From NCBI GenBank assembly GCA_963813555.1, contig CAWEZX010000003.1, positions 7,882 through 71,881 of the forward strand: 64,000 bases of DNA, in the 5' to 3' direction. Made by a program: the position numbers and the translations under genes. Shown piece by piece: positions 6,806 through 64,000 of this stretch. The notes beneath the pieces are model-generated. The model had not been told where the DNA came from. It ran no database searches and worked only from the letters and a program-made list of their open reading frames with translations. This DNA comes from an uncultured Alphaproteobacteria bacterium. Its GTDB lineage: Bacteria; Pseudomonadota; Alphaproteobacteria; Rhizobiales; Beijerinckiaceae. The first letter of the stretch is position 1, and every line of letters starts with the position of its first letter.

Positions 6806-7578
6806 CCGGGCTTTCCCGCGGGACAAAGAGCGCCCCCTTTCTCACAAAAAGTTGTGCCGCCCCCGGGAGGCGAAGTCGATGAGGTCTCTCGGCTTCGCCT
6901 TCCTCAGTTACGTTAGCTTTTTCGTCGTCGAAAAAGTGACCCACAGTCCCCTCCCTAAGAACATTCAACCGTCGCCACTGAAGCGAGACTTTGGGTTAGC
7001 ATGATAGCCGCGACCGCAGATGAAGCCCGGAAGATCGGTTCAGATGAGATTGCGGGTTGGATCGCGCAAATACACGTCGCGATGACCAAAGGCCCAGAAG
7101 CGGCCCATAATAGCAAGACAGCGGCTGTCTGGTCGGGAGGACAAACCGCCACAGACCCCAGACCGTTACAGGGATCCCAATGGTCGCCTTGATGGCCTGC
7201 GCGGTCGGAGAGATTAGCCGTCATAGCTGAAATCGAAACGCTGGGGAAGAAGCGCAATGAGAGGCCCACCTTGCCGGTCACATTCTGCGACGTAGCTTCG
7301 CCGCTGACGAAAAGAATGACGTTCACAACCGGCTACGTCCCACTAGCGTCATTCCTAGGTAAAGACCGCTGTCGAATATGATCGTAGATGCCATTCGCCA
7401 ATCGGCCTTGAGTTATGTCAAAAGGATCAGAAAAAGAGGCTCTTGATCGCTCTCGTTTCGGCATTGTTTTTCGCTGTACCTGTCGGCAGGAAGCCCGAAT
7501 GTGTTGACGCAATTCAGCCTCATGTCGAGCCTCACATAAGCCGGAGGCCCTCCAGCCCTGTCCCCGCCCCAGCGATGG

Positions 7579-7738
7579 AATGACGGGTTTCGGCCGGACT
7601 CCGGTCCTTCCCGAGGCGACCGACGTAGGCGCGCTCTCCGCCCTTGAACACTTGGGTGAAAAGCGAGCCTTGCCAAAACGGCCCTTGACGTCCGGTCTCG
7701 ACGGAGCCTGGCCTCGCGAAGGCCCAAAAGCCGTCATT
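7579..7738. repeat. ~160-bp imperfect palindromic intergenic element
   Basis: Ends AATGACGGGTTTCGGCC and GGCCCAAAAGCCGTCATT are near reverse complements. Confidence 0.55.
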
Positions 7739-7930: not shown

Positions 7931-8404
7931 CGCGGCGTCGTAGAGCGCGTAATGATCACTCGGACGACGATCGAGATCGAGCTCGGTGAGGCGATTGCGG
8001 GAGAAGATCAGGATCGCATCCTGATGATTCCCTGGACGCCGCCATCGCCCTATCGACGCCGCGAGATCATCCTGGGCGAAGGCGATCAATCATCCACGAT
8101 GCGACCGATGAGAACCAAAGCGCGCGCGATTCTCATCGACGCGCTTCGCGACGCCCATCGGTGGCTGGACGAACTGACGAGGGATGCCGATCAAACCATC
8201 GAAGCGCTCGCTGCGCGCGAGGGCAAGACCGAGCGCTCGGTCCGCATGACTCTGTCGCTCGCCTTCCTTTCTCCGACCCTTGCGAACGCGGCGATTGACG
8301 GACGTCTGCCTCGCGGCTTTGGGGCCAAGCGCCTGATGGACCTTCCGATGGCGTGGTCGGACCAATGGTCGTCGCTCGGCCTGAAGGCGTCAGCCCAAGC
8401 TTGA
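7931..8404 (+). pseudogene. 3' fragment of large serine recombinase of a DUF3489-DUF2924 module
   Basis: ERVMITRTTIEIEL...PWTPPSP...DAHRWLDEL...LAFLSP matches the C-terminus of 18373-19890; 74 bp identical to 63927-64000. Confidence 0.85.
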
Positions 8405-8697
8405 TCGACCAAAAGCGTCTGCCTTGCCCTGATCAAGATAAAATCGCGTCAGATGCCGCCCACACTTCGCCCGACCGAACCCTCGGTCAACTCTGTCGCC
8501 GGCGCGTCCGACGGCTCCAACCTCGGCCAGGCCGACCGGCCTTTGGGAAACCGAATTTCGCGGCATGGAGACTCGAAGCGGCAACGGTGCGGTAGGAGGC
8601 CAAAAATCCCCTCAAATTGCTGCCGCAGACCGGTCTATGCCCTGCTAACGCCCGACGACGTCGCGGGATTTTAGAATCAGGGAAACCGCACCCGCTC

Positions 8698-8729
8698 GCG
8701 CCGACTTCCTGGTGGAGCTGAGGGGATTC
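8698..8729 (-). repeat. tRNA-Ala-like 3'-end att-like element terminus, copy A
   Basis: Reverse complement GAATCCCCTCAGCTCCACCAGGAAGTCGGCGC identical to 18140-18171. Confidence 0.85.
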
Positions 8730-8764
8730 AAACCGCGATGCTCTTGGCGATGCGGTCGCATCAC

Positions 8765-9073
8765 TTAGACCATGGCCGCTAATTCGGCGAGCGTCACAAA
8801 CCGAATTCCGAACGCTTGGCTCAGCCACTGACGGTTGTCAGGGTGTAGAACTGAACTTCTTCCTGCGCTTCGGCCGCGATCTTCGGTGCAAAAGAGATCA
8901 TTACCATAGCCGTAGTGGGAGGCCACGCTGTCCCCGTCCGCCCACTCCGCACACGCCTCAATTACCTGTTGGAGCTCCCCGCTGCCTTCTGCTCGCAGGA
9001 GGCCCTGGCACCAAAGCTCCGGCTCGCACACTCCGGTTCGTTCGCTGAAGCGTATCCCTCTGCCGAAGGCCGC
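8765..9073 (-). pseudogene. C-terminal fragment of a hypothetical, possibly PIN-like, protein
   Basis: EWADGDSVASHYGYGNDLFCTED has PIN-type acidic spacing; no plausible N-terminus. Confidence 0.35.
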
Positions 9074-9117
9074 CTAGCGAGAAAGGGCGGCGAGGGACGA
9101 TAGTGTGGTGCACGGAT

Positions 9118-9460
9118 GGCGGCGAGCGCAGGCGACGGACTTGGTCAGCTGATCAGAAGCAACGGATCGTTGCGGAAAGCTTTGCGCCTGGCGCGTCCGC
9201 TGCGGAGGTGGCGCGCCGCTTCGGCCTGAACGCCAACATGCTGTTCACCTGGCGCAGGCGAGAACAGCAGGCGAGCGGCGCGAGCGACGTCGGCGAGCCA
9301 GTGAACATCGTGCCGGTGAGGGTCGTGGGGGCTCCGCCGACTGCGCCCGCCAAAGCTCCCGGCTCGATGGGCCGGATGGAGATCGTGCTTGTTGGCGGCG
9401 AGCGGATCATAGTCGGGGCGGATGTTGACGCCGGCGCGCTCGCTCGCATCGTCAAGGCAG
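9118..9460 (+). pseudogene. IS66 TnpA (orfA) fragment
   Basis: RRRTWSADQKQRIVAESFAPGASAAEVARRFGLNANMLFTWRR and MEIVL..GERIIVGADVD; tnpB/tnpC absent. Confidence 0.85.
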
Positions 9461-9468
9461 AGGGCCGG

Positions 9469-10494
9469 TCAATTCGTCCCAATCAGAAGGCGGTAGCGGA
9501 TCTGGTCGACGATGACCGCGAGTATGAGCAGCACGCCAAGCAGGACCATCTGCATGTACGAGCCGATTTGCATGAGGTCCATGCCGTTCTGGATGAGCAC
9601 GATGAAGAAGGCGCCGAGCACCACGCCTTCAATGCGGCCGATGCCGCCGCGAAGCGAAACGCCCCCGATGACGCAGGCGGCGATCGATTGGAGCGCGATG
9701 GTTCCGCCGAGATTGGCCTCGCCCAACTCAACGCGCGCCGTCAGCAGCAAGCCGTCGATCGAAGCCAGGAGGGCGCTCGCGGCGTAGGCGATCAGCAAGG
9801 TCGCGGTGGTGTTGATGCCGGAAAGCTTCGCGGCCTTCACATTGCCACCGACGGCGTAGAGGTGACGCCCGAAGCGGGTCCCGTAGAGAAAGACCGCGAG
9901 GACGGCAATCGAAATGATGGCGACGGCGACGGTAACAGGCATGCCGAAAATGCGGCCAAAGCCGAACGTGTCACCGAACGCGTGCGGAAAGCCGGTCACA
10001 GGCACGCCGCCCGTGAGAAACAGGGCTACTCCGGCGCCTACCGACTGAACGCCGAGCGTCATGATGAAGGCCGAAACCCCGAAGACCGCGACCCCGGTCC
10101 CATTGATGAACCCGATGAGGAGCGCAACCGCCATGGCGCCGAGGCAGCCGGCGGCAATGATGAGCCCGACGGAATCGGGAATGGCGGCCATGACGGAGAT
10201 CATGATCATCGCCGAGATGACCGAAGTGAGAGCGATCGTCGTTCCGACCGCGAGATCGAACCCGCCTGTCAGCAATACGATCATCTGACCGAGCGACACG
10301 AGCACCAGATAGACTGACTGACGAGCGACATTGACGATGTTCTGCGCGGTGAGGAATTGCGACGAGGCGAGGGTGAAGACCACGAGCGCGGCGACAAGAA
10401 AGAAGGGGAGCACGCCCAAGCGGATGAGCACGAGCTTCGCTGCGTAGGCCGCGCCAAAGTTCGTGCGAACGGAGGTTGTCGCCTCGACGCTCAC
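9469..10494 (-). CDS. ABC transporter permease (ribose/xylose family)
   Basis: Multi-TM, TGGFDLAVG, YAVGGN..AAKLSGI, GGVSLRGG; GTGA overlap with ATPase stop. Confidence 0.92.
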   Translation of the reverse strand: MSVEATTSVRTNFGAAYAAKLVLIRLGVLPFFLVAALVVFTLASSQFLTAQNIVNVARQSVYLVLVSLGQMIVLLTGGFDLAVGTTIALTSVISAMIMISVMAAIPDSVGLIIAAGCLGAMAVALLIGFINGTGVAVFGVSAFIMTLGVQSVGAGVALFLTGGVPVTGFPHAFGDTFGFGRIFGMPVTVAVAIISIAVLAVFLYGTRFGRHLYAVGGNVKAAKLSGINTTATLLIAYAASALLASIDGLLLTARVELGEANLGGTIALQSIAACVIGGVSLRGGIGRIEGVVLGAFFIVLIQNGMDLMQIGSYMQMVLLGVLLILAVIVDQIRYRLLIGTN

Positions 10495-11984
10495 GCGGCG
10501 GCCTTTCTGCGCTCGAAGAAGCGTGGAAGTACCGCCGCTTCGTTGATCTCGTCGCCTTCGAGCTCGGCGCTGATCTGGCCCGCGGAGAAAATCAACAGCC
10601 GGTGTGAGAGACTCATCGCTTCTTGCAGATCCGAAGAGATCACGACCACCGCTTTCCCACTCTCTGCGAGCGACTTGATCACACGATAGAGCTGCGCCCT
10701 CGTGCCCATGTCGACGCCCACGGTCGGCTCGTCGAACACGTAGAGCGCGTAGTCGCGGCCGAACCCCTTGCCGAACAGAACCTTCTGCTGATTGCCGCCC
10801 GAAAGCTGAGACACGAGGCGACGAAGCATGGGGCGATCGAGGCCAATCGCCTTGGCAATTCCCGCAATGGCCTCGACCGCCCACCGACCGCGCAGGCTGC
10901 CGGTCCCAAGCATGCCGAGCGCAATATTGTCGGACGCGCTTGCAGTCAGCACCAATCCTTCGTTCTTTCTATCAGGCGGGAGGTAATGCACGCCGGCGGC
11001 GATGACCGCATCCGTCCGCGCGCCCGTCATGTCCCGGCCGTTGAGGAGGACCTTGCCGGCAAGCGTGCGGTTGAGGCCCATCACAGCGCGCCAGACGCGC
11101 GATTTGCCCGAGCCAACCAAGCCCGCAAATCCCGTCACCTCGCCGGCCCGGATCGCGAAGCTCGCGCGTGCGACGCCAGCGGCGCTGAGCCCTTCGACCC
11201 TGAGAACCTCGGGGCCGCCGGGACGGCCGATTGGGGGATAGATGGCCCCCATGACGCGCCCCGTCATCATGGCAAGCAGCTCCTCCTCCGACAATCCCGC
11301 CGCAGGAACCGTGCCGAGACAGCGTCCGTCCCGAAGCACAGTGATCCGGTCCGCGATCCGTTGGAACTCGTGAATGCGGTGGGAGATATAGATGACACCC
11401 ACGCCTTTGGCTTTGAGGCGCGCTATGAGTCCAAACAATATTTCCGTCTCGCGATCGGTCAGCGATGCGGTCGGCTCGTCCAGGATGAGAACACGCAAGT
11501 CGCCTCGCATCGCCTTGGCGATCTCTACGAGCTGCTGCTCGCCGCGCGACAGTTGCGAGACGGTCCTGTCGAGATCAATGCCGCGTTCGAGCGCAGCGAA
11601 TAGCGCTTCCGCTCGACGGCGTCCCTCGCCCCGCCGCAGAAAGCCGAGCGAGGCCGGCTCTTCGCCGAGAACGAGATTCTCGAGCACGGTTTGAGTGGGG
11701 ACAAGGGAGAATTCCTGGAACACGGCCGAGACACCGAGCTTGCGGGCGTTCCGCACCGTGAAAACCGTCACAGGTTCGCCGGCGATTTCAACCGACCCGC
11801 TGGTTGGGGTCATGGCGCCGGCGAGGATCGAGATCAGAGTGGATTTGCCCGCGCCGTTCTCGCCGAACAGCACATGAACCTCGCCCGCTTCAAGGGCGAA
11901 GTCCACATAGTCGAGCGCAACGACGCCCGGATAACGCTTGGTGAGGCCGCGCGCTTCGACAATCGGTTTTTGAAGATCGGCCAT
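10491..11984 (-). CDS. Sugar-type ABC transporter ATP-binding protein (tandem NBD)
   Basis: GENGAGKS, LILDEPT, LSGGNQQK, DEPTVGVD; own ATG at 11984. Confidence 0.92.
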   Translation of the reverse strand: MADLQKPIVEARGLTKRYPGVVALDYVDFALEAGEVHVLFGENGAGKSTLISILAGAMTPTSGSVEIAGEPVTVFTVRNARKLGVSAVFQEFSLVPTQTVLENLVLGEEPASLGFLRRGEGRRRAEALFAALERGIDLDRTVSQLSRGEQQLVEIAKAMRGDLRVLILDEPTASLTDRETEILFGLIARLKAKGVGVIYISHRIHEFQRIADRITVLRDGRCLGTVPAAGLSEEELLAMMTGRVMGAIYPPIGRPGGPEVLRVEGLSAAGVARASFAIRAGEVTGFAGLVGSGKSRVWRAVMGLNRTLAGKVLLNGRDMTGARTDAVIAAGVHYLPPDRKNEGLVLTASASDNIALGMLGTGSLRGRWAVEAIAGIAKAIGLDRPMLRRLVSQLSGGNQQKVLFGKGFGRDYALYVFDEPTVGVDMGTRAQLYRVIKSLAESGKAVVVISSDLQEAMSLSHRLLIFSAGQISAELEGDEINEAAVLPRFFERRKAAA

Positions 11985-12043
11985 GACCGGCGAAATGAAG
12001 GGACACCGGCCCAAGGGCCGACATCCATGAGGGATGAGCGTCC

Positions 12044-13115
12044 TCAGTTGACCTTGAATACGGCCTTGAAGTCGTTCGGGGGCAAAATGTTGTCGTGCGG
12101 CACGGTCGTCAGGTTCGACTTGTCGACGACGAAGATCTTCGGTCCCACGTGCTTGATGAGATCCTTGCCTTCGAGAAGGCGCGTCGCCTGATCGATCGCG
12201 ATGCGGCCTTGGATGACCATCGAGTCCGCCGGCGCCGCAGTGATGAAACCGCGTTCGATCCCGTCGTAGAACTCCCGGCGTCATGTAGAAAGCGAGCAGG
12301 CCGATCTTGTCGATCAGGCCGCGCTCGCGCAGCAAGCCGATCGAGGCCTCGGCGGTGACCGCAGTTCCCGCGATATATTTCATGTCCGGATTGGCTTGCA
12401 GAACGTCCTCGACGAGCTTGAGCTGCACCTCCTTGCCGGTGTCGCCATATTTGGGCGGGAGCACTTCGACCGCGGTTCCCTTGACCGCGTCCATGAAGCC
12501 CTTGTTGGCGGCCTCGACCCAGCCGGCGCCGGCGGGACCGGGGAACCAGCCGACCTTCACCGGCGGCGACCCAGCCGGATGCTTCTCGGCGAGATATTCG
12601 CCGGTGGTATGACCCATGGTGTAGAAAGAGACGAGCGACTTCGCCGAGATGTCGGGCGAATTGATGCCGTTGATCACGTCGATGATCGGAATCTTCTTCT
12701 CGTGGAGCTCCTTGACGAGATTGTTCAGGCCGTCGGCGGAGATGGCGCCGATGACCACCGCCTGCGCGCCGTTCGCCACGCAGTCTTCGATCTGGGAAAT
12801 CTGTTTGTTGAGCTCCGTATAGCCACCTGCCTCGACAAGGTTCATCGAGACGCCGAGGCGCTTCGCCTCCTGGACCACACCGTAGTCGACGCCGAGCCAG
12901 TAGGCGTCCTTCATATGAGGAAAGGACACGCAAATCTTCCACGGCTTCGACGCCTTCTCAAGTGGCACGTACTCGACCGACGAAACCTTGCCGTTGGGAT
13001 CGAAAGGCGGAGTGACCTCCTCGGCCTTGTACGGGAACCACTCGGCCGCTGACACAGGCGCGGCCGTCGCGAGGGTCGAGACGCCTGCGCAAACTGCGAA
13101 TGCAAGGACTTTCAT
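12044..13115 (-). pseudogene. TorT-family periplasmic binding protein with a +1 frameshift near 12270
   Basis: Signal peptide, CVSFPHMKDAYW, EAGGY; C-terminal YDGIERG...FKAVFKVN continues in another frame to TGA 12044; span 1072 bp = 357 codons + 1. Confidence 0.85.
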
Positions 13116-13185
13116 ATCGTTTCCTCCTGACTTGAGCGTTACCCGACTGTCCTAAGCGCCCTCGTCGCACATTGCGCGCCGACGT

Positions 13186-14160
13186 TCAGGAAAGGCTCTC
13201 CTTCACCCGACCCGCCATGGCTTTCCGCTCGGCCCGCGCTTTCAAGGCGGTCTCCATATCGACCTTGACGAAGCGCGTCGGCTGGTGCGGTTGCAACTGA
13301 CCGATGAGGTCCATGTCGGCCGAGATGACGGTTCCGAGCATGAAATACCCGCCGCCCGACACCGCGTCGCGGTGGAGAACGATGGGTTCCGTGCCTCCGG
13401 GGACCTGGATCGATCCGTATGGGTAGCAGCTGTCGACGATGTTGGAAGGGTCCGAGCCGGCGCCGAATGGCGGCTTCCTTGGCGCAAACGAGAGGGCGCG
13501 GCCGCCGCGGAAGCGATATCCAATTCGATCGGCCTCGGGCGCAACCTTCCATGTGTCCTCGAAAAAGGTCTTGCCCGCCTCTTCCGTCAGACGATGCCAG
13601 TAGAGCCCGGGGAGCACGCGCAGTTCGGACGTTCCGCGGACTTCGAAGCGCAGGTTAGGGGGCACGCTCCGGCCGGGCTTCGCGTGCCCGGGTTGGGTTC
13701 CCACTTTCACGCGATCGCCGGCTTTCAGAGCGCGACCCTCGAAGCCGCCGAGCGCGCCGAGCGGATAGGTGGAGCGGGAGCCCAGCACGACGGGCACGTC
13801 GACGCCGCCGGCGACGGCGATATAGGCGCGCGCGCCCGATTTGAGGAAGCCGAACGACAGTGTCTGGCCCGACTTCACCGTAAACGACGTCCAGTTGGGC
13901 TCATCGGCGCCGTCGACTTTGGGCGGCATGTGCGCGCCGCACACGGCCACGACGGCGTCGCGGTCGAAGCGGATCTCCGGTCCCTGAAACACCGCCTCAA
14001 GCGCCGCCGCGCCTTCGGAATTACCGACCAGCAGGTTCGCCGCAGCGAGCGAAAACTTGTCCATGCCGCCGGATTCGGGGATGCCGAGATGATAGTAGCC
14101 TGGCCGGCCGAGATCCTGAACGGTGGTGGAGAGGCCAGGCTTCAGGATCTCAAGCGCCAT
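13186..14160 (-). CDS. PxpC/allophanate-hydrolase-subunit-2-like carboxyltransferase domain protein
   Basis: PGLSTTVQDLGRPG, GAALE, DRIGYR, GSIQVP..EPIVLHRD..SGGGY. Confidence 0.88.
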   Translation of the reverse strand: MALEILKPGLSTTVQDLGRPGYYHLGIPESGGMDKFSLAAANLLVGNSEGAAALEAVFQGPEIRFDRDAVVAVCGAHMPPKVDGADEPNWTSFTVKSGQTLSFGFLKSGARAYIAVAGGVDVPVVLGSRSTYPLGALGGFEGRALKAGDRVKVGTQPGHAKPGRSVPPNLRFEVRGTSELRVLPGLYWHRLTEEAGKTFFEDTWKVAPEADRIGYRFRGGRALSFAPRKPPFGAGSDPSNIVDSCYPYGSIQVPGGTEPIVLHRDAVSGGGYFMLGTVISADMDLIGQLQPHQPTRFVKVDMETALKARAERKAMAGRVKESLS

Positions 14161-15031
14161 AAAGCGCCCCCAAGATTTTCACGTTGGTCGCCGCCGGGCT
14201 GGCGTGAAACTCGTCGAGCGAAAACGCCACCGGCCGCATCGTCGGCTCGAACCGCCCGGCATTCACGAGTTCAACCGCCGCGTCATAGCCGTCGCGATCC
14301 ACCGGCTTGAACTTCACGATGTCGCCCGGCTTGAAGAAGATCATGAAGTCGCTGAGGTACGACACTTCCTGTTTGGGGTCGTAGATGGGCATCGGCGTGA
14401 TGCCGAAGAGCTGATACCCCCCGGCCCCGCGAACGGAATAGATGCACCCGAAACAGCCGCCGTGACCGACGGTGAGCTTCGGCGTATCGGTCCTCGGCCG
14501 CAGATATTTCGGGACCTCGATCTGCTTCTCCCGCTCGACCATTTGATACATGAACGGCAACCCGGCGACGAAGCCGACCATCGAGACGAACCACGGCGCG
14601 CCTGAATGCGCCTGGATGAAATCCGGGACGCCGCCGTAGCCATTGATGCGGGCGGCGTATTCGAGGTCGGTCCCGGTCGGGTCCTGGTGCCGCTCGCGAA
14701 AGCGCATCAGCGTTTCGTGCGTCCAGGGATCGTTGTAGTGGACCGGAACCTCGAGGATCCGGGTGGACAGCGTATGGCCGCTCTTCGCCGCCGCGGCCTC
14801 GAGGCGCTTGAGTTCGGCCAGCATGTCGTTGGGACTGATCTGGTCCGGGTCGAAGCGGATTTGGTAAGAGGCGTTGGCCGGGCAGATTTCGGTGACGCCC
14901 TTGATCCGGCTCTCGCGCACCGCGTTGGTCATCGACAGGGATTTGAAGAAGGCGTCGAGCGACATTTCCTCGTCGACCTCGACGAAGATGTGATCGTCGC
15001 CCCCGAACGAATACCTGGTCTCCATCCCCAT
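14150..15031 (-). CDS. PxpB/allophanate-hydrolase-subunit-1-like protein
   Basis: GGDDHIFVE, EICPANASY, MVGFVAGLP, GAGGYQLFG.TP. Confidence 0.88.
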   Translation of the reverse strand: MGMETRYSFGGDDHIFVEVDEEMSLDAFFKSLSMTNAVRESRIKGVTEICPANASYQIRFDPDQISPNDMLAELKRLEAAAAKSGHTLSTRILEVPVHYNDPWTHETLMRFRERHQDPTGTDLEYAARINGYGGVPDFIQAHSGAPWFVSMVGFVAGLPFMYQMVEREKQIEVPKYLRPRTDTPKLTVGHGGCFGCIYSVRGAGGYQLFGITPMPIYDPKQEVSYLSDFMIFFKPGDIVKFKPVDRDGYDAAVELVNAGRFEPTMRPVAFSLDEFHASPAATNVKILGALYGA

Positions 15032-15047
15032 CCTTCCTACGGCCCTC

Positions 15048-16421
15048 TCACGCGGCCCGACCGATCGCCGGCAGGTTCGAAGGCAGCCAATCCTCCAACC
15101 AGCGCGTATGGACGGCGTCGTTTCGAACGTCTTCGTCATCGAGAAGCGCGAGATGCAGCCCGCGCGTCGTCGCCACTCCTTCGATCGAGAGGTTCTGCAA
15201 TGCGGTTCGCAGGCGGCGGAGCGTCTCCTCCCGACTGTCGCCGGCAACGATCAACTTGCCGAGAAGGCTATCGTAAAAGGGCGGCACGACATAGCCCTCA
15301 TACAACATCGTGTCGAAACGGACACCCTCGCCCTCGGGCGCGCGAAAGCGAACGACTCTACCGGGTGCCGGTATAAACTGCTTGGCGGGGTCCTCGGCGT
15401 TGATGCGAACCTCGACCGCATGGCCGCGAATGGCGATGTCGGATTGGCGGTAGGGGAGCGACTCTCCGCCCGCGATAAGAAGCATGGACTGAACGAGGTC
15501 GACGCCCGTGATCATCTCAGTCACGGGGTGCTCGACCTGGATGCGGGTGTTCATCTCGATGAAATAGAAGTCGCCGGTCGTCTCGTCGTAGAGATATTCG
15601 AGTGTGCCGGCGCCCCGGTAGGCGACGCTTTTCGCGAGCCGCACGGCGGAGGCGCACAGCGCTTCGCGCCGCTCGGGGGAAAGGCAGATCGCGGGCGCCT
15701 CCTCCCAGACCTTTTGACGGCGGCGCTGCAGTGAACATTCGCGCTCGTAGAGATGGATCGCGGCTTCTCCATCGCCGAGAACCTGAACCTCGATATGACG
15801 GGCGCGCGGGACGAAACGTTCGAGATAAAGGCCTCCGTCCCCGAACGCGGCGAGCGCCTCGGCGCTCGCCTGCGGGATCTGAGCCTCGAGTTCCGCGGAG
15901 GACGCGGCAATGCGGATTCCGCGGCCGCCGCCGCCGGCGGCCGCCTTGATCATCAGCGGAAAGCCGATGGCTTCAGCCGCCTCGCGGGCCGCGCCCGCAC
16001 CCTCGATGCGTCCATTGGAGCCCGGTACTGGGGGGACGCCGGCGCGCGCCGCCATCTCGCGCGCCACGGCCTTGTCGCCCATGGCCCGGATCGTCTCGGG
16101 CCGCGGTCCCACGAACACGAGCCCGGCGCTTTCCACCGTCGCAGCGAAGTCCGCGTTCTCCGACAGGAAGCCGTAGCCGGGATGGACGGCGTCGGCGCCG
16201 CTCGCGACGGCGGCGGCGACAACGGCTTCTTTGTTCAGGTAGGATTTTTTGGCGTGCGGCGGCCCGATCTCGGCGACTTCGTCCGCTATCCGCGCGGCCA
16301 GCATCTCCCGGTCGGCGGAGCTGACCGCTTGGACGGTGCGGATGCCGAGCGCCTTCGCGGCGCGTATGATGCGGACGGCGATTTCCCCGCGATTGGCGAC
16401 GAACAGCCTCCGGATCGGCAT
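15048..16421 (-). CDS. Biotin carboxylase
   Basis: ANRGEIA, HPGYGFLSEN, GGGGRG, ERECSLQRRRQK, EMNTRIQVEHPVTE, YDSLLGK. Confidence 0.95.
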   Translation of the reverse strand: MPIRRLFVANRGEIAVRIIRAAKALGIRTVQAVSSADREMLAARIADEVAEIGPPHAKKSYLNKEAVVAAAVASGADAVHPGYGFLSENADFAATVESAGLVFVGPRPETIRAMGDKAVAREMAARAGVPPVPGSNGRIEGAGAAREAAEAIGFPLMIKAAAGGGGRGIRIAASSAELEAQIPQASAEALAAFGDGGLYLERFVPRARHIEVQVLGDGEAAIHLYERECSLQRRRQKVWEEAPAICLSPERREALCASAVRLAKSVAYRGAGTLEYLYDETTGDFYFIEMNTRIQVEHPVTEMITGVDLVQSMLLIAGGESLPYRQSDIAIRGHAVEVRINAEDPAKQFIPAPGRVVRFRAPEGEGVRFDTMLYEGYVVPPFYDSLLGKLIVAGDSREETLRRLRTALQNLSIEGVATTRGLHLALLDDEDVRNDAVHTRWLEDWLPSNLPAIGRAA

Positions 16422-16428
16422 CGCGCGC

Positions 16429-16671
16429 TCAGACGTCGAGGTCGTAGAGCGGCTGGCCGGCCATCACCGGGTCCTCGTTCTCCGCATGGAATGCGAGCAG
16501 GCGCCCGGCCGCCTCCGCGACCACCGGCGTGAACGTCTTCATCACCTCGATGAGCCCCACTGTGTCGCCGATCGCGACATTGTCGCCCTCTCCCTTGAAC
16601 GGCGGCTGATCGGGCGCCGGTTTGCGAAAGAAGGTGCCCGGTACCGGGGCCTCGAACGTCTTGCTCGCCAT
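16429..16671 (-). CDS. Biotin carboxyl carrier protein
   Basis: EVMK biotinylation motif, APVPGTF. Confidence 0.92.
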   Translation of the reverse strand: MASKTFEAPVPGTFFRKPAPDQPPFKGEGDNVAIGDTVGLIEVMKTFTPVVAEAAGRLLAFHAENEDPVMAGQPLYDLDV

Positions 16672-16694
16672 AGCGACTTGCCCCACCAGGAAGG

Positions 16695-17441
16695 TCAGTG
16701 CTTCTCGAAGCGAGGCGCGATGAAGCCCTCGCTCACCAAACGATCGTGCACCGCCTGCGCGACAAGATGAGCGCCCGGCGTGTCCGAGTGTACGCAGATC
16801 GTGTCCGCTCGAACTTTTATGTCCTTTCCGCCGACGGAACGCGTCACGCCCTCGCGCAGCGCCCTAACGGCGCGGGTCGACGCCTCACCGGGATCGACAG
16901 CCTCATGTTCGCGGGTAATGATGAGCTTGCCGTCGTCGGCATAGTCCAAATCGACGTAATACTCGGCCAGGAACCGATGGCCGCGAGCCGTGTAGACCCT
17001 TTCATGCTCGGTGCCGATCATCCCGAGCAGAGGCGCCTTGAACACGTCCGCCGCGTCGCAGACCGCGTGCGCCATTTCCGGGTCGCGCGCGGCCATGCCA
17101 TAGAGTGACCCGTGAGGTTTGATGTGGTTGAGCGACATGCCCTCAGCCTCGAGAAACCCTTTCAGCGCGCCGATCTGGTAAATCAGGCAGTTGGCCAGTT
17201 CGTCGCGACCGATCTTCATCTCGCGCCGTCCGAACCCCTGTCGATCCGGCAGCGACGGATGCGCGCCGACCTGAACGGCATAGGCCTTGGCCAGTTGCAC
17301 TGTGGCGCGCATGTGGTTGAAGTCGGACGCGTGGAACCCGCAGGCGACATTGGCGATGTGGATGGCCGGCATGATATGGCGGTCGTCACCCAAGCGCCAG
17401 ATGCCGTAACTCTCGCCCATGTCGCAGTTCAGGAGCGTCAT
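16695..17441 (-). CDS. pxpA: PxpA (LamB/YcsF family)
   Basis: LNCDMGESYG, ANVACGFHA, GAHPSLPD..GFGRR, HIKPHGSLY, TICVHSD. Confidence 0.92.
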   Translation of the reverse strand: MTLLNCDMGESYGIWRLGDDRHIMPAIHIANVACGFHASDFNHMRATVQLAKAYAVQVGAHPSLPDRQGFGRREMKIGRDELANCLIYQIGALKGFLEAEGMSLNHIKPHGSLYGMAARDPEMAHAVCDAADVFKAPLLGMIGTEHERVYTARGHRFLAEYYVDLDYADDGKLIITREHEAVDPGEASTRAVRALREGVTRSVGGKDIKVRADTICVHSDTPGAHLVAQAVHDRLVSEGFIAPRFEKH

Positions 17442-18135
17442 CGGCCTCTCCAAGCAATCCTGCAAACACGGTCGCAAACGGGCGGAACCTTGTAAAGCCG
17501 GAAATTATCGTCGGCCGCGCTGAGCAATTCTTGAACCGAAAACCGGATGTCCCAGAGGCAGCAAGCCGATGCCTTGGTCCATATCGACGAGCCGGATGTG
17601 GTGGTGACGGAAAAGACGAGAGGACAACCTTCCTTGCCACGCTCAAATCGGAATGAGTGGCCAAATTGATCATCGGCCGGAGTAAAAAAGAATTGTCTAG
17701 CTTCAGGCTTCAGAACGGCAACGGAGGCGAATATAGGTTGGGTCGAAGTTCGGCAGCCCCGAAGAAACGGGTTCAAGCGCTCGCCGTAAAGGGCCGCGGC
17801 ATCGAACTTGATGCGCTCCACGTCGACGTGATCATTCGCCGCTACGGGGCCGCGACACGCAAAGTGGCGGTTCTCGTCGAGTTCCTGAGAGAGCTTCCAT
17901 GAGTTGGCGGCGCGACGCTGGAGAGAGGCGTTGACGTCCCGGCCTCCGGAACGCGAATTCTGCGCCAAGAAATGATGTGGGGAATCATTCGCCGCTGGCC
18001 GAGCGCGTGGAACATGGTCCGTCCCCGCGCGATGAGCCCGAGGCCGTGCGTGTCGACGTCACCAACGAGCTCGAGGACCTATCCAGACCGACTGGAGGAT
18101 GGTGGCAAGCCCGCTGCAAGCTGCGATGGCCATCA

Positions 18136-18171
18136 GTTCGAATCCCCTCAGCTCCACCAGGAAGTCGGCGC
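18136..18171 (+). repeat. tRNA-Ala-like 3'-end att-like element terminus, copy B
   Basis: GTTCGAATCCCCTCAGCTCCACCA resembles a T-loop to CCA end; upstream sequence is not a tRNA 5' half. Confidence 0.85.
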
Positions 18172-18372
18172 AAACCGCCCTGGGTTCCCGGCGCCTACAA
18201 TCCGTCGACAATTTAGCGCGTTAGCGCGGAAGCTAATGGTCTGCGGGGTCTGTCCCTCTGGGACGACGGGCGTTAGCCGGGGAACGCGGAAATGAGTCTC
18301 CGACGCCGAATTTTGGGTTCCCGACTGGGCGGCTGGACTGATCAGCGAGATCGCGAACCGTTCGGATTGCAA

Positions 18373-19890
18373 TCAGCGTTCGGCGGGCACCCTTAGCCCC
18401 AACGCCGACCATTGGTCAGGCCACGCCATTGGAAGGTCCATCAGGCGCTTGACCCCAAAGCCGCGAGGCAGTCGACCGTCGATCGCCGCTTTGACGAGGG
18501 CGGGGCAAAGGAAAGCGAGCGAGATGGTTCGGCGGATCCAACGTTCGGTTTTGCTTTCGCGCGCGGCGAGCGATCCGATGTTTAGGTTGGGACTGGTGAT
18601 CAGTTCGTCGAGCCAACGATGAGCGTCGCGAAGCGCGTCGGTGAGGACCGCGCGCGCTTCGGTTCGCATCGGGCGCGTGACGCAGGGTCGTTCGCCCTCG
18701 CCTTGGATGATCTCGCGGCGCCGGTGGGGCGACGGCGGCGTCCAGGGGATGATCAGGATGCGATTCTGATCGTCACTTGTCGTCCCCTCGGCAAGCTCGA
18801 TTTCGATCGTCGTCCGAGACATGACAACGCGCTCGATGGCGGCGCGTAAGGTTGCGTAGTCGCTCGGGCGCGCCGCTGGAGAATCGGTTGACGCGCCGCG
18901 GCCGCTCGCCTTCGGCTGATGCAGCTCATGCCGACCCTGCCGATTGGAAGCAGGCGAGGCCGCGCGCGCCGCCTCGGCGACCCTGGCGTCGATCTCCAGC
19001 GCCGGCACGCGGGCGACAGATCCCGCCTCGTGTTTGCGACCTTGCAAGACGGCCTGCGAGACATAGTAGCGCCATCGCCGGCCGCCCTTAGCGGCGTGGC
19101 TTGGGCTCATCGGGTTGCCGCGATCATCGAACAACTTGCCCGCGAGAAGCGCGTCCGAGTTCTTCCGTCCTCCCGCGGTGCGTTGCGCGTGCTCGGCAAG
19201 CAGCAGTTGGACACGATCCGACGTCTCCCGATCGATGATCGAATCGTGAAGGCCATCGTAAACCTGGCCCCTGTGGGGCAGCCGCCCAAGGTAGATGGGG
19301 TTCGACAGGATCTTGTAGAGATGGCCCCGGCTGATGAGCCCGCCGCCCGTGGTCTTGCCGGTACTGTCCGTCCTTGTCGGCAGCCGCACGTTCTCTTGGT
19401 CGAGGATAGCCTTGGCCCGCACGACGCTGCCGATCTCAAGATAACGCCGAAAGAGATCTCGGACGAAAGCGGCATGCTCCTCGACGACATGGAGCGCCCG
19501 GTTCTCGACCCGATAGCCGAGCGGAACCACGCCGCCCATCCAGATGCCCTTCCTCTTCGAGGCGGCGATCTTGTCCCGGATCCGCTCGCCCGTGACTTCG
19601 CGCTCAAACTGGGCGAAGGACAGCAGTACGTTGAGGGTCAATCGTCCCATGCTGGTGGTCGTGTTAAACGCCTGGGTAACCGAGACGAACGACACCTGAT
19701 GGGCGTCGAAGAGTTCGACCAGCTTGGCGAAGTCGGCGAGCGAGCGGGTCAGCCGGTCGACCTTGTAGACAACGATCACGTCGATCCGGTGAGCGCGAAC
19801 ATCGTCCAGCAACTTCTTGAGCGCCGGCCGATCTATCGAGCCGCCGGAATAGCCGCCATCGTCGTAGCGGCTGCGGACCAGCTTCCAGCC
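18373..19890 (-). pseudogene. Large serine recombinase (DUF3489-DUF2924 module), first ~50 aa removed at the IS21 junction
   Basis: Begins GWKLVRSRYDDGGYSGG, VYKVDRLTRS, NPIYLG; catalytic-Ser segment (YTRVST) missing. Confidence 0.9.
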
Positions 19891-20045
19891 TGTCAATCGG
19901 CTCGGAAACGGAACCCCGGATCGGCGCGCAAAAGGGACCCCTTGGTTGGTGACAAACGTAGGCGGCAGCGCTCGTCCCGGCGTAGCTGGTCGGGGTTGCG
20001 CAGCCGGGACGAGCGCGGTTTCGGTTGAGGTGAGATCTTCTTGCG

Positions 20046-31847: not shown

Positions 31848-31980
31848 GGCATTGTCACATCAACCGTTTTTACAGGTCAGTACTTACCTCTTGGCGGAAG
31901 CCAGTTTCAATAATGTCAATGGGTTATCGAACCAGTCGAAGAGGGTCTGAGGGCCTTTACTTGCTAGATGTGACAATGCC
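31848..31980. mobile_element. 133-bp non-autonomous element with IS6-like 14-bp perfect terminal IRs
   Basis: GGCATTGTCACATC ... GATGTGACAATGCC; no ORF; joins two truncated genes. Confidence 0.75.
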
Positions 31981-32622
31981 CTCGTGGTCGAGGATAGCCT
32001 TGAGCCGCACGACGCTGCCGATCTCGAGATAACGCCGATAGAGATCGCGCACGAAGGCGGCATGCTCCTCGACCACATGGAGCGCCCGGTTCTCGACCCT
32101 ATAGCCGAGGGGAACGACGCCTCCCATCCAGATGCCCTTCCTCTTCGAGGCGGCGATCTTGTCCCGGATCCGCTCACCCGTGACCTCACGCTCGAACTGG
32201 GCGAAGGAGAGAAGCACGTTCAGGGTCAATCGTCCCATGCTGGTCGTCGTGTTGAACGCCTGGGTGACCGAGACGAACGACACTTGATGGGCATCGAAAA
32301 GCTCGACCAGCTTGGCGAAGTCGGCGAGCGAGCGGGTCAGCCGGTCGACCTTGTAGACAACGATGACGTCAATCCGTCGAGCGCGAACGTCATCAAGGAG
32401 CCTCTGTAACGCTGGCCTGTCCATCGAGCCGCCGGAGTAGCCGCCGTCGTCGTAGTGGGTGCGGATCAGCTTCCAGCCTTCATGAGCTTGGCTCTTGACG
32501 TAGGCTTCCGAGGCCTCCCTTTGATTGTCGAGCGAGTTGAACTCCCGCTCCAGGCCGTGCTCAGTCGAGACGCGGGTGTAGACGGCGCAGCGCAGCGCCG
32601 TTTTGCCTCTCTCCGATCTCAT
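31981..32622 (-). pseudogene. Large serine recombinase 5' part, truncated at the MITE
   Basis: YTRVSTEHGLE.EFNSLDNQRE, DDGGYSGG; stops after LKAILDHE. Confidence 0.9.
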
Positions 32623-33275
32623 GGCGACGCCGCCTGCCGACCAGACCGTCGGGCGAAAGCGGCTCCGCCGTCATTGATGGGCGTTGAGACGGCATCGGAC
32701 GCAGCGGTGTCGCAATCCCCTGACCTGCGATGGACCATCGCTGATCGGTCGGACCCGGCCGTCCGCAAGCCGAAGAAGCGATGGCCGTTCCAGCTTGTGC
32801 CTGTCATCGCCTTGGCGACTTGCGACAGGCTGCCGTAGTTCTCGTCATTCCAGGCGAAGCCCTTGTCGAGGATCATCACACGCTCGAGCCTGCCATTCCA
32901 TTCGCGGGCGAGCAGAGCCCCGGCCTTCAGCTTGGTCCCATCCCGCGTTGTCGCAATCCGCGCTTCGAAAGGATGCAAGTCCGATGATCCGAGCCTTCCA
33001 CCCTTCGGTTGGCGCAGGACACGCAGCGTCTCTTTGTCGAGCCCGCCGAACGCCGTGGCCTGGATGCGATAGGCTAGGATCTTCATGAGCAGCCAACGCG
33101 GCAAATGGGCGGGCGGGGTCCCGCCCAAGTGGTTGCGCCATTGCAGGCAAAGTCCGTTCGCGTCGAGATCGACCAGCGCCGCGATCAAGTCGTCGAGGGC
33201 CAGGACGCCCTTGGGTCGCGGCGGCGGGCGAAGCAGACCTTCATCCGCGCCGCGCGTTGGCCGGCGCCTAGCCAT
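32619..33275 (-). CDS. DUF2924 family protein
   Basis: LAYRIQ...GGL, GALLAREWNG...GF.W....YGSLSQVAKAMTGTSWNGHRFFGL. Confidence 0.85.
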   Translation of the reverse strand: MARRRPTRGADEGLLRPPPRPKGVLALDDLIAALVDLDANGLCLQWRNHLGGTPPAHLPRWLLMKILAYRIQATAFGGLDKETLRVLRQPKGGRLGSSDLHPFEARIATTRDGTKLKAGALLAREWNGRLERVMILDKGFAWNDENYGSLSQVAKAMTGTSWNGHRFFGLRTAGSDRSAMVHRRSGDCDTAASDAVSTPINDGGAAFARRSGRQAASP

Positions 33276-33967
33276 CAGGCCGCTTGACGGGCTTGTGGCT
33301 CCGACCCGGCCTGTTCCTTCCTGCGCGCCGTCTCGGAGTTTGCCGGCCCTTCAACGAGGCCGGTCTCACCTGCCGGGATGCGGTAGAACGATCCCCGCTT
33401 ATCGTCTGATCGATCGATCGCGACTGCATAGCCGCGCTTGCGCAGGCCGGTCAGCGCGGCGCGGGTCGTGTGCGCGAGCCAGCCCGTCGCAGCGATCAAT
33501 TCCGCAATGGTCGCGCCATGATCGCGCTCGAGCAGCGCAATAACACGAGCCAGCTTCGAGCCGCCGCGTGGAGCAGACGGGCCTGCAGGACCAGGCTCCA
33601 TCGCTTCTGCGGGTCGAGCGTCTTTGGCGTCCAACTTCGACAGGATGGCCGCCTGATCATGCTTCGCGAGCGCGTCGCTTGCCTCGCCTGCATCCTCAGG
33701 CTCGGCGGCGGCATCGACCGCGATCGCTTTGGCCCCCGTGGCGGTGAGCTTGAGCGCATAGGACGCCCCTGACTCCTCGTCCCGCCGCCAGATTGGACCA
33801 CTCGCCTTGGCCTTGACCTCCTTTACAAAGCGAAGAGAGATCAGCTTACTCGCGACTTTCTGCGCTGTGGCGCCCTTGAGCGTCGGCGGGGCGACGAGAA
33901 AGAGGTCCTTGCGTTGGGCTGCGGCGCCCAGCAGAACGAGCTGCGTATCGGTAAGTTTGATGGACAT
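33275..33967 (-). CDS. DUF3489 family winged-HTH protein
   Basis: MSIKLTDTQL.LL.AAAQR, GSKLARVIALL...GATIAELIAATGWLAHTTRAALTGLRKRG. Confidence 0.85.
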   Translation of the reverse strand: MSIKLTDTQLVLLGAAAQRKDLFLVAPPTLKGATAQKVASKLISLRFVKEVKAKASGPIWRRDEESGASYALKLTATGAKAIAVDAAAEPEDAGEASDALAKHDQAAILSKLDAKDARPAEAMEPGPAGPSAPRGGSKLARVIALLERDHGATIAELIAATGWLAHTTRAALTGLRKRGYAVAIDRSDDKRGSFYRIPAGETGLVEGPANSETARRKEQAGSEPQARQAA

Positions 33968-61110: not shown

Positions 61111-61270
61111 AAAAGACTGGCGTTTCCTTCGAAACGGAGCGTGTATGTGCACGTCCGCGGGGTCGCGAATGACTAGCGGACACCCCTTCGCCCCGTCGAT
61201 CGCATCGATCCGGGGCTCGTCCTGGTGAGGGGCCGGATTGGCCGTGCTCCCAGAGACGAAGGGTCAGACC
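61111..61270 (+). promoter_or_regulatory. Conserved leader upstream of DUF3489, copy 2
   Basis: Same GACTGGC-N6-TTCGAAA-N-GGAGCGTGT motif and hairpin 61190-61216. Confidence 0.6.
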
Positions 61271-62098
61271 ATGTCCATCAAACTCAGCGACACGCAGCTC
61301 GTCATGCTCAGCGCCGCCGCGCAGCGCGAAGATCGCTGCATCGCCGCTCCGCCGAGTCTGAAGGGCGCCGCAGCCCAGAAGATCGCGACGAAGCTGGTCG
61401 CCGCGGGATTGGCTAAGGAGATCAGAGCAAAGCGGGGCGCCCACGTTTGGCGGCGCGACGATGCGACCGGGCTCACTTACGCGCTGAAGGTTACTCCTGC
61501 AGGGCTGATGGCGATCGCGATCGAAGACGCAGAAGCCGCCGAGCCCGCCGTCCAGATCTCGCCGCCTGCTACCGGCGAGGTCCCGACGAACATCGCGGAT
61601 CATGAAGCGGCGGCGGAGAACGTTGCGGGGTCAGCAACGATTGCGATGCCGCGCGAAGGCGCGAAACTCGCTGCGGTCGTGGACCTGCTCCGACACGAGG
61701 GCGGAGCTACGATCGACCAGCGGGCCGATCCTTCACCCGCCGGAGCGATCCAAAGCCCATCCCCGAGCCGGTCTCCCCCGCGGAGCGGCACAAAGCTGGC
61801 GCAGGTCACCAAACTGCTTCAGCGGGACGATGGCGCGACAATCGACGAGTTGATCGCCACAACTGGCTGGCTTGCGCACACGACGCGGGCAGCGCTGACT
61901 GGCCTGCGCAAGCGGGGCTACGCGGTAACGATCGATCGGTCCCACAAGGAACGAGGATCGATTTACCGCATCAATGCGGATCGCATCGACGAAGACAGGC
62001 CGGCGGTTGTTCACTCCGAGGAAGCGCAGGCGTCCTCCGTGACGGTCTCGATGAGGGCTGAGCGCCAAGCGAAGTCCAAGGCGCGTCGCGCGGCGTGA
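61271..62098 (+). CDS. DUF3489 family protein with partially duplicated HTH segment
   Basis: MSIKLSDTQL; PREGAKLAAVVDLL..EGGATIDQ followed by PRSGTKLAQVTKLL..DDGATIDEL..TGWLAHTTRAALTGLRKRG. Confidence 0.85.
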   Translation: MSIKLSDTQLVMLSAAAQREDRCIAAPPSLKGAAAQKIATKLVAAGLAKEIRAKRGAHVWRRDDATGLTYALKVTPAGLMAIAIEDAEAAEPAVQISPPATGEVPTNIADHEAAAENVAGSATIAMPREGAKLAAVVDLLRHEGGATIDQRADPSPAGAIQSPSPSRSPPRSGTKLAQVTKLLQRDDGATIDELIATTGWLAHTTRAALTGLRKRGYAVTIDRSHKERGSIYRINADRIDEDRPAVVHSEEAQASSVTVSMRAERQAKSKARRAA

Positions 62099-62706
62099 TG
62101 GCGAAGCTGCCGCAATCGAGGCGCGTCGGCGAGAATTTGCTTCCGTCGACGCCGCGACCGGCTGAACGCGGGCCGCTCGAGGAGTTGGTCACGGCCCTTG
62201 TCGATCTCGACGTGAATAGGCTTCGCCTGCAATGGCGCAACCACTTGGGCGGGACCGCACCTACCCATTTGCCGCGGTGGCTGTTCTGGAGGGTCTTGGC
62301 CTATCGCCTCCAGGCCGCCGCGCTTGGCGGTCTCGACAAAGAGACGCTGTGCGTCGTTCGCCAGCCGAAGGGCCAGACGCTCGATTCCCCGGTCAGCCGT
62401 CCCTTCGAAGCGCGGATCCCGGCGACCCGGGAGGGGGCCACCCTCGGAGCGGGCTCGCTGCTCACTCGGGAGTGGAACGGCAAGCTTGAACGGGTGATGG
62501 TGCTGGAAAAGGGCTTCGCCTGGAACGGTAAGTCCTATGGCAGCCTGTCGCAGATCGCCAAGGCGATGACAGGCACGAGCTGGAGCGGCCACCGTTTCTT
62601 CGGCTTGCGCGCGGCGAAATCCGGTCCGTCAGCACGCGCTCTGGCCGGCAAGATCGCCCTCGCTCATCCCGAGAAATGCGGTCGTGACGCGGCTACTTCG
62701 CCATGA
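62095..62706 (+). CDS. DUF2924 family protein
   Basis: LAYRLQ, LTREWNG, YGSLSQIAKAMTGTSWSGHRFFGL. Confidence 0.85.
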   Translation: MMAKLPQSRRVGENLLPSTPRPAERGPLEELVTALVDLDVNRLRLQWRNHLGGTAPTHLPRWLFWRVLAYRLQAAALGGLDKETLCVVRQPKGQTLDSPVSRPFEARIPATREGATLGAGSLLTREWNGKLERVMVLEKGFAWNGKSYGSLSQIAKAMTGTSWSGHRFFGLRAAKSGPSARALAGKIALAHPEKCGRDAATSP

Positions 62707-64000
62707 AGCCCGAGAGCCGCAAGGCGAGCCTCCGCTGCGCGATCTACACCCGCGTCTCCACCGAGCACGGCCTGGAGCAGGAGTTCAACTCGCTCGACAA
62801 TCAGCGGGAAGCATCGGAAGCCTACATCAAAAGTCAGGCCCACGAAGGCTGGCGGCTGATCCGGAATCGCTACGACGACGGCGGCTATTCCGGAGGTTCG
62901 ATGGACAGGCCGGCGCTAAAGAAGCTGCTGGACGACGTTCGGGCGAGACGGATCGACGTGATCGTCGTCTACAAGGTCGACCGGCTTACCCGCTCTCTTG
63001 CTGACTTCGCCAAACTGGTCGAACTCTTCGATGCGCATCGGGTGTCGTTCGTCTCGGTCACCCAGTCGTTCAACACGACGACCAGCATGGGACGATTGAC
63101 CCTGAACGTCCTCCTGTCCTTCGCCCAATTCGAGCGCGAGGTCACGGGCGAGCGGATACGCGACAAGATCGCGGCCTCGAAGAAGAAGGGCATTTGGATG
63201 GGCGGCGTGGTTCCGCTCGGCTATCGGGTCGAGAACCGGGCGCTGTATGTCCTCAAAGAGCATGCGGAATTCGTTCGCGATCTCTTCCAGCGCTATCTCG
63301 AGACCGGCAGCGTCGTGCAGCTCAAGGCCATCCTTGATCAGCAGGACACCAGGCTGCCGACTCGAACCGATGGGACTGGCAAGACCACCGGCGGCGGGCT
63401 CATCAGCCGCGGTCATCTCTATAAGATCCTGCGAACCCGATCTATGTCGGGCGGCTGACCCACAAGGATCGGGTGCATGACGGCCTTCACGACCCGATCG
63501 TGGATAGCGAGACCTGGGGCCAAGTCCAATCCTTGCTCGCGGAGCATGCCCAACACACGAACACCGTCCGGCTGAGACTCCGACGCCCTCCTTGCCGGCA
63601 AGCTCTTTGACGATCGCGGCAACCGAATGAGTCCAAGCCACGCGACCAAGGGCGGACGCCGATGGCGCTACTATGTCTCGCAGGCGATTCTGCAGGGCCG
63701 CAAGCAAGATGCGGGGACCATCGCTCGTGTGCCAGCGATGGAGATCGAACGAAGAGTTGGCGAAGCGGTGCGAGCAGCCTTGTCCGATTCCGATCGTCAG
63801 CTTGCGATCGGATCGCAAGGCGGTCAACGCCGCACCAATCACCCCGGCGCGCCAACCGACTTTCCCGCTCCGACGAAAGCTGCGCCTTCGGGCGCCACTG
63901 AACCCGCCGTTGACCTGCGCGCCGTGGTAGAGCGCGTAATGATCACTCGGACGACGATCGAGATCGAGCTCGGTGAGGCGATTGCGGGAGAAGATCAGGA
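62703..64000 (+). pseudogene. Large serine recombinase with a -1 frameshift near 63436; runs off the window
   Basis: YTRVST, DDGGYSGG; ATC CTG CGA ACC where the paralog reads ILSNPIY; continues in another frame. Confidence 0.88.

Follow-up and report, generated by a model that had tools for sequence, protein, structure and literature searches.

A pair of inverted, tRNA-Ala-like sequences brackets an operon of pxp and ATP-binding cassette (ABC) importer genes within a 64-kb window (the whole stretch analysed, C3:7882-71881) of the genome of an uncultured alphaproteobacterium of the family Beijerinckiaceae (7.28 Mb in 18 contigs, denoted here C2, C3, C18 and so on). Each member of the pair is followed, on its outer side, by the 3' end of a gene for a large serine recombinase (LSR). 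The two sequences are most probably leftover attachment (att) sites of two broken islands that came to flank the operon by an accident of rearrangement, and they do not appear to constitute a working mobile or invertible unit, given that both LSR genes are truncated, the two sites share the attP type and the DNA between them is a mosaic.

The 32-mer GAATCCCCTCAGCTCCACCAGGAAGTCGGCGC is located at window positions 18140-18171 on the plus strand, and its exact reverse complement at positions 8698-8729 (Table 1). A search of the 7.28 Mb identifies just these two copies, and a simple calculation gives a chance expectation of about 1e-10 for an exact 32-bp inverted repeat in 64 kb. With a repeat finder, the match grows to 111 nt at 73% identity (8623-8733 and 18136-18246), and beyond a non-alignable stretch a second pair of 475 nt with 78% identity (7931-8405 and 18372-18846) is detected that corresponds to the recombinase 3' ends. 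The CCA end and the recombinase stop codon are separated by 305 nt on the left and 213 nt on the right, so that at both sites the LSR stop lies within the 190-470 nt of a convergent tRNA-type 3' end that are typical of the family. ARAGORN finds no tRNA gene in the window, and an Infernal search against Rfam detects no tRNA at either end, even at E<=10, in the regions 8600-8900 and 17950-18250; at gathering thresholds, the whole-window Rfam search yields nothing but one group II intron. A first-pass annotation of this DNA had described the identical 32-bp inverted ends, the diverged arms, the serine recombinase 3' ends, the lack of a tRNA gene and the pxp/ABC cargo, and all these features are confirmed by the repeat finder, ARAGORN and Infernal and, for the identities of the cargo genes, by Pfam.

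The tRNA-like part of the repeat corresponds to the 3' end of tRNA-Ala(CGC). The gene for this tRNA, identified by an ARAGORN search of the whole genome, is located on a different contig (C18:225327-225402), and its last 25 nt, GGTTCGAATCCCCTCAGCTCCACCA, match each of the window copies with a single mismatch, whereas tRNA-Ala(TGC) and tRNA-Ala(GGC) differ from them at 7-8 positions. The 32-mer consists of 20 nt of the tRNA 3' end and 12 nt of element DNA, GGAAGTCGGCGC. Mapping of the copies, which the first-pass annotation had proposed along with the comparison to the host tRNA-Ala genes, adds to the two 32-mers approximately 10 further copies of the 25-mer (<=2 mismatches), most of which adjoin LSR 3' ends. 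The tmRNA (transfer-messenger RNA) was also considered as the source of the motif and was ruled out: the tmRNA gene is on C7 and the 25-mer matches tRNA-Ala(CGC).

Both ends could in principle be pseudo-tRNAs, i.e., tRNA-Ala genes that have decayed and are left without their 5' halves; indeed, the 51 nt 5' of the right core are identical to the tRNA at 20 of 51 positions, including the short runs GCTGCAA and GATGG. Nevertheless, this explanation is exceedingly unlikely, considering the lack of a tRNA signal at the permissive threshold given above and the nature of the adjacent sequence. The non-tRNA sequence GATGGCCATC, or a near variant thereof, is found directly 5' of the core in six copies, namely, the right window site and five other non-tRNA copies, which implies that the DNA 5' of the core is an element arm and not decayed tRNA. 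Furthermore, the upstream flank of the real tRNA-Ala gene, which is kept in 15 of 15 related genomes, is absent at the window sites. The sequence 3' of the CCA is different in every genome.

The layout of the sites includes a P arm, the 25-nt copy of the T-loop, acceptor and CCA, and a P' arm that starts with GGAAGTC, with the stop codon of a convergent LSR gene 200-300 nt further on. In the window, the P arm is on the inner side and the P' arm and LSR on the outer side of each site, so that both are attP-type sites, that is, a tRNA 3'-end mimic set between two element arms and followed by an LSR. The view, put forward in the first-pass annotation, that the element carries a tRNA-like att arm, which in the window has come to rest at two places without a tRNA gene, and that this motif is tied to serine recombinase 3' ends holds for this genome and across its relatives. 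The two window copies stem from different sub-lineages, their arms being 73-78% alike. The left P' arm and the adjoining LSR relic match, with 96% identity along 816 bp, a module at C18:238349-239162 that carries a different core, and the right P' arm aligns with the arms located 3' of intact tRNA-Ala genes in the related genomes G001, G010, G011, G012 and G026.

These relationships bear on the possibility that an element of this kind keeps a built-in spare attP, i.e., a mirror copy of its att site and of the recombinase 3' end. The inverted core, arm and recombinase 3' end fit such a design superficially, but the divergence of the arms and the much closer match of the left copy to the C18 module with another core are hard to reconcile with it. 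In addition, the LSR 3' relics in relatives begin at many different residues, and the related loci contain one core each, the core copies of the most comparable relative, G024, being clustered in direct orientation. An inbuilt spare site is therefore a very improbable explanation of the pair.

Judged from their sequences, both LSR genes of the pair are dead. The catalytic Resolvase domain with the serine nucleophile is absent in the left copy and incomplete in the right one. A tblastn search shows that the left relic is 96% identical to the intact copy at C18:286330-288009 over residues 406-560, and the nucleotide homology of the left module to other copies in all cases ends at position 7931. 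For the right copy, homology is confined to residues 49-554, the upstream reading frame is non-homologous, and the Resolvase profile PF00239 is matched from position 31, whereas intact family members keep the catalytic motif AIYTRVST and PF00239 positions 2-144. The Recombinase domain, PF07508, is detected in the right copy with E=2.2e-9 and in the intact copy with E=1e-12. The right gene is cut by an IS21-type element (IS, insertion sequence), and the missing 48 codons were not found beyond it. Pfam identifies pieces of this element as rve and Mu-transpos_C_2 (IstA) and shows that it is itself interrupted by an IS110-family element (DEDD_Tnp_IS110/Transposase_20) and by a small LSR element (Resolvase, Recombinase and Zn_ribbon domains). 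The coupled upstream genes for DUF3489 and DUF2924 proteins are missing at both modules of the pair, which are truncated at 7931 and 19890, respectively.

The interior between the cores is a mosaic of an IS fragment, a displaced orthologous operon and a methylase relic. The operon encodes an ABC importer, PxpC/PxpB-type carboxyltransferase subunits, biotin carboxylase and PxpA, as identified by Pfam, and its homology to G004 (84-92%), G026, G013, G008 and G014 spans only the region from 9455 to approximately 17510-17519, i.e., orthology stops 725 bp (left) and 620 bp (right) inside the cores. In the left P-side DNA, just about 15 nt beside the core, AAGAGCATCGC, resemble the P arm of other copies. 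In the adjacent IS fragment, PF01527 matches residues 9-63 of an open reading frame starting at 9103, and the 55-nt segment 9051-9105, which is found with 84-93% identity in six genomes of the same genus, is probably an insertion sequence end. On the right, a 29-residue relic (17795-17881) is similar (69% identity, E=1e-11) to the C-terminal end of an N6/N4 DNA methylase (PF01555) encoded on C9, where a complete C-terminal methylase domain of the same kind precedes an att core beside a different LSR. Except for the methylase relic and the IS end, the P-side DNA has no counterpart in the relatives.

The first-pass annotation had considered the framed operon to be a potentially mobilisable or invertible block. 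Under this explanation, the pair would delimit a composite element in which a serine recombinase acts on the inverted tRNA-like ends to invert or mobilise the 9.4-kb pxp/ABC block. The perfect preservation of 32 bp between flanks that diverged to 73-78% identity is compatible with such a function, and an apparently intact trio of DUF3489, DUF2924 and LSR genes, the LSR of which is the close homolog of the left relic over residues 406-560, could provide the enzyme in trans. However, a working recombinase with pairable inverted sites, the hallmark of an invertible segment or composite transposon, is not found here: with both local LSR genes truncated and both sites of the attP type, a trans-acting enzyme would have to carry out attP-by-attP recombination, which is not a known reaction of serine integrases. 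The operon orthology ends well inside the cores, with the IS fragment and the methylase relic in between; in G004, G026 and G013, the operon shows no linkage to LSR modules; and a second core within 3 kb is found in none of 80 related loci. Taken together, these observations make a composite element quite unlikely.

The substrates of LSRs are attP and attB or, in the presence of a directionality factor, attL and attR, and the enzymes invert the DNA between inverted attP and attB sites. Given this mode of action, the pair could have originated from a past LSR-mediated inversion between attP and an inverted att site on the same replicon, with subsequent decay, and the right window site is indeed the only copy in opposite orientation among the four cores on C3 (-, -, +, -). 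Such an event is expected to leave hybrid attL and attR sites; here, however, both sites have the element arm inside and the P' arm with the LSR outside, and neither inner flank is tRNA. Thus, a past inversion of this kind is unlikely.

The reading of the pair as leftover sites of two broken islands implies the following sequence of events. Each end would be the attP-type site of an integrative element driven by a DUF3489-DUF2924-LSR module, and on the chromosome these elements would target the tRNA-Ala(CGC) gene at its 3' end. The recombinase would pair attP with the real tRNA gene and exchange strands at or beside CCACCA, such that integration would leave the tRNA whole, with the P' arm and then the recombinase gene downstream of it. 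This is the arrangement at the real gene on C18, where a convergent, frameshifted LSR gene of the same family is located about 390 bp downstream. Repeated insertion would then produce arrays with attP-like internal junctions, and the inverted pair would be debris of island accretion and IS-driven rearrangement. The signature used by Islander, an intact tDNA (the gene for a tRNA or tmRNA) and a displaced direct fragment with an integrase between them, is present at C18:225327-252934; for the flank beyond the C18:252910 copy, the relatives offer no counterpart, only a paralogous domain match. In the window, there is no tDNA, the fragments are inverted and the recombinase genes are outside the fragments. 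A tyrosine integrase was considered as the driver and rejected: of the 38 PF00589 matches, most of which represent a multi-copy 333-aa element, none adjoins a window site or falls in the interval from the tRNA gene to its first LSR.

Table 1. Features of the inverted pair and of the adjacent DNA, in window coordinates
Feature	Position	Strand	Basis or remark
Left LSR relic, last ~155 codons (residues 406-560) and stop	7931..8404	+	tblastn
Left P' arm (element DNA, CCA end to LSR stop)	8405..8709	-	GGAAGTCGGCGC directly after CCA
Left core, 25-nt tRNA-Ala(CGC) 3'-end copy GGTTTGAATCCCCTCAGCTCCACCA, 1 mismatch	8710..8734	-	tRNA comparison
Left P-side DNA, unique in genome and genus	8735..9050	.	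similarity searches
Truncated IS fragment: 55-nt end repeat and 5' part of HTH_Tnp_1 transposase open reading frame	9051..9455	+	PF01527
ABC importer, pxpC/pxpB, biotin carboxylase and pxpA operon, 8.06 kb	9455..17519	-	Pfam, orthology
Right P-side DNA: methylase relic 17795-17881 and P arm GCGATGGCCATC	17520..18134	+	similarity searches
Right core, 25-nt tRNA-Ala(CGC) 3'-end copy AGTTCGAATCCCCTCAGCTCCACCA, 1 mismatch	18135..18159	+	tRNA comparison
Right P' arm, starts with GGAAGTCGGCGC	18160..18372	+	aligns with arms after intact tRNA-Ala genes
Right LSR without first 48 codons, including the catalytic serine motif	18373..19890	-	homology limits
IS21-type element cutting the right LSR	19891..26296	-	Pfam; break 19890/19891 checked

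Cores of other kinds are also present in this genome. A 32-nt copy of the tRNA-Val(CAC) 3' end (C18:238357-238388, plus strand) is found inside the island array downstream of tRNA-Ala(CGC); the arm upstream of this copy has a homolog in that of an Ala-core copy at C2:720704. For a third core type, GGTTTSGSWGGACTRCGTCCGCCACCA, no matching target gene is detectable in this genome; it is represented at C18:285885-285911 and C9:95891-95917, in each case followed by a P'-type arm. The former of these copies belongs to the only apparently intact DUF3489-DUF2924-LSR trio in the genome (C18:286330-289474, minus strand), which together with C18:280027-282628 (plus strand) forms an inverted 2.6-kb duplication, the two copies being 3.7 kb apart and 94-98% identical at the protein level; the duplication covers DUF3489, DUF2924 and LSR residues 1-379.

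In LSR integrases, short attP and attB sites are recombined at a central dinucleotide; here, sequence comparison places the exchange of strands either within the 25-nt block as a whole or at the CCACCA that ends it. The first-pass annotation had placed the crossover near the T-loop; the evidence as a whole leans to the CCA end, which on sequence grounds is somewhat the more probable position. Between the left window arm and C18:238349-239162 (96%, 816 bp), the Ala and Val cores are switched exactly at CCACCA, where the tRNA-Val(CAC) copy is joined to its arm, and CCACCA is likewise the point at which the third core meets another P' arm (C18:285885; a related sequence is at C9:95891). A conserved motif is located immediately 3' of the CCA, and the temperate phage AcaML1, discussed below, has a 10-bp repeat, CCACCATTTA. 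The T-loop is favoured by the precedent of the Dehalococcoides islands, and a T-loop-centred site would place a 40-bp attB entirely within the gene.

Several further observations weigh against the CCA end as the exchange point or against the island-debris reading more generally. The identity with the tRNA always starts at G52/G53, which fits a crossover in the T-loop equally well, and dyad-symmetry scoring yields weak peaks only, at the T-loop. A second tRNA 3'-end copy is absent in 8 of the 12 same-genus genomes and in 9 of the 14 other genomes that carry the LSR; at the same time, this absence in most of the LSR-bearing genomes examined is itself a reason to place the crossover at the CCA end. 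In four genomes, the 9-40 kb examined around the LSR contain neither a tRNA-end copy nor weak tRNA-like repeats, and the relatives yielded neither an empty tRNA-Ala site nor a complete island with both ends. Finally, judging by its apparently complete genes, the C18 trio may act in trans on the window sites.

The recombinase belongs to an interesting, little-described family, in which the LSR is encoded by the last gene of a coupled DUF3489-DUF2924-LSR operon. This LSR is present in 36 of the 81 related genomes searched and is widespread in Hyphomicrobiales, including Methylobacterium, Enterovirga, Microvirga, Beijerinckiaceae, Rhodoblastus, Nitrobacter and Methylocystis. Pfam detects the Resolvase and Recombinase domains in the family; the zinc ribbon with its embedded coiled coil (PF13408) is not detected in this clade but is found in the unrelated LSRs on C9 and at window positions 20941-23013. 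Sequence matches to solved structures cover the catalytic domain only, the best one being the TP901-1 integrase. In the literature searched, DUF2924 is mentioned in three papers only, each of them about Wolbachia. Two more trio modules are located elsewhere in the window, at 31957-33967 (minus strand), where the LSR is cut after residue 216, and at 61238-64000 (plus strand), where the module runs off the window and contains two in-frame TGA codons.

The adjacency of this LSR to tDNA was surveyed at 94 assessable, non-redundant loci from other genomes. At 48 of the 94 loci, a full convergent tRNA or tmRNA gene is found within 1.3 kb of the LSR stop (median distance 337 nt); 8 loci contain, as in the window, a T-loop-to-CCA fragment alone; and at the remaining 38, neither a full gene nor a fragment is detected downstream of the LSR stop. 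Only three tRNAs occupy any other position at these loci. The targets comprise 14 kinds of tDNA, 13 for tRNAs and one for tmRNA: Ala-CGC (26 of the 48 tDNA-adjacent loci), Met (5), Ala-GGC, Val-CAC, Val-GAC, Tyr, four Ser, two Gln, Lys, Phe and one tmRNA. Thus, the tDNA next to the LSR in relatives is usually an intact gene and not the decayed tRNA gene that the first-pass annotation had named as the contrary outcome. In five genomes of the same genus, both window arms can be aligned with the arm that lies 3' of the intact tRNA-Ala gene. Regardless of the tRNA, the positions after the CCA are conserved, with A at +4 in 48 of 56 sites, T at +6 in 46 of 56 and C at +7 in 41 of 56.

The nearest named relative of this system is AcaML1, a temperate phage of Acidithiobacillus caldus (JX507079; Gp3/Gp2, "site specific recombinase", and Gp4), the LSR of which is 49% identical over residues 5-386. 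As in the window family, the AcaML1 recombinase is encoded at an edge of the element (in the phage, the left one), convergent with the target RNA gene, with an arm of approximately 310 nt. The attB site of the phage has been given as srrA with 10-bp direct repeats (PMC3826726 Table 2). The first letters of the AcaML1 record are CCACCATTTA and the last are ...GGACGCGGGTTCGGTTCCGTGTTCCGCCACCATTTA, in which a T-arm/acceptor look-alike precedes a second copy of these 10 bp, so that the far end of the phage carries a tmRNA 3'-end look-alike (T-arm and acceptor end) that finishes in CCACCA. Unlike the window copies, which are dead relics matching the tRNA at 24 of 25 nt, AcaML1 is a complete 59-kb prophage with an imperfect mimic, and we interpret its target as the tmRNA gene (ssrA) and not tRNA-Ala.

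A second parallel is offered by the ssrA islands of Dehalococcoides, in which the CcrB-like serine integrase DsiB is encoded beside attL, a 20-bp copy of the ssrA end is present at every junction, a conserved non-target motif is located just upstream of each repeat, and tandem arrays extend downstream of the target; all repeats are direct and the authors place the crossover in the T-loop (PMC3146451). These islands differ from the window family in the recombinase clade, in the accessory proteins DsiA, ParB and Mom, and in that the tmRNA is the sole target. The C9 contig encodes an unrelated LSR (C9:844-2559, plus strand; Resolvase, Recombinase and zinc ribbon domains), the frame of which reads through a tRNA-Ala(CGC)-like core (C9:2464-2488, minus strand), and beyond this core lies the gene for an N6/N4 DNA methylase; as has been reported for DsiB, the attachment site is within the recombinase 3' end.

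In the standard view, tRNA genes are targets of tyrosine integrases, and the respective islands (Islander) abut the 3' part of a tRNA, encode the integrase at the tRNA-proximal edge and carry the tRNA 3' sequence (PMC4383910). The window family shares this layout, but the enzyme is a serine recombinase, and most genomes with this LSR contain no displaced tRNA fragment. Among the Tycheposons of Prochlorococcus, which are tRNA-associated integrative elements, 27 of 937 carry an LSR (bioRxiv 10.1101/2020.12.28.424599); the hosts and cargo of these elements are unrelated to those of the window, and the parts of that report consulted here mention no DUF3489 or DUF2924 partners.

The same P' arm (96% identity) carries an Ala(CGC) core in the window and a Val(CAC) core at C18:238357. 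We would tentatively suggest, with some doubt, that the LSR family might recognise the T-arm/CCA geometry that is universal among tRNA genes, exchange strands at the CCA end and retarget itself by swapping a 25-32-nt core cassette. If so, the 32 bp kept at both window sites would be the working heart of attP, with the left half imitating the T-loop, acceptor and CCA. Serine integrases are prized as genome-engineering tools, and a naturally re-addressable family with two unstudied partners, DUF3489 and DUF2924, would give a direct handle on how these enzymes choose and change their targets; in this genome, one trio is apparently intact and natural variants of the site are numerous. The pair itself appears to be an ordinary relic, an example of how a normal operon can become stranded between look-alike sites through island accretion and IS activity.

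Other repeats and mobile elements are found near the broken modules. Just left of the cut of the left LSR relic, window positions 7572-7645 contain a ~70-bp repeat that occurs at least 13 times, spread over eight contigs, with 76-89% identity. Just past the IS21-type element, at 26535-26673 (minus strand), Rfam identifies the group II intron domain RF02003 (102 bits). On C18, positions 284626-285742 harbor a 1.1-kb element represented by at least 45 copies genome-wide at approximately 99.5% identity, a sign of a recent IS burst.

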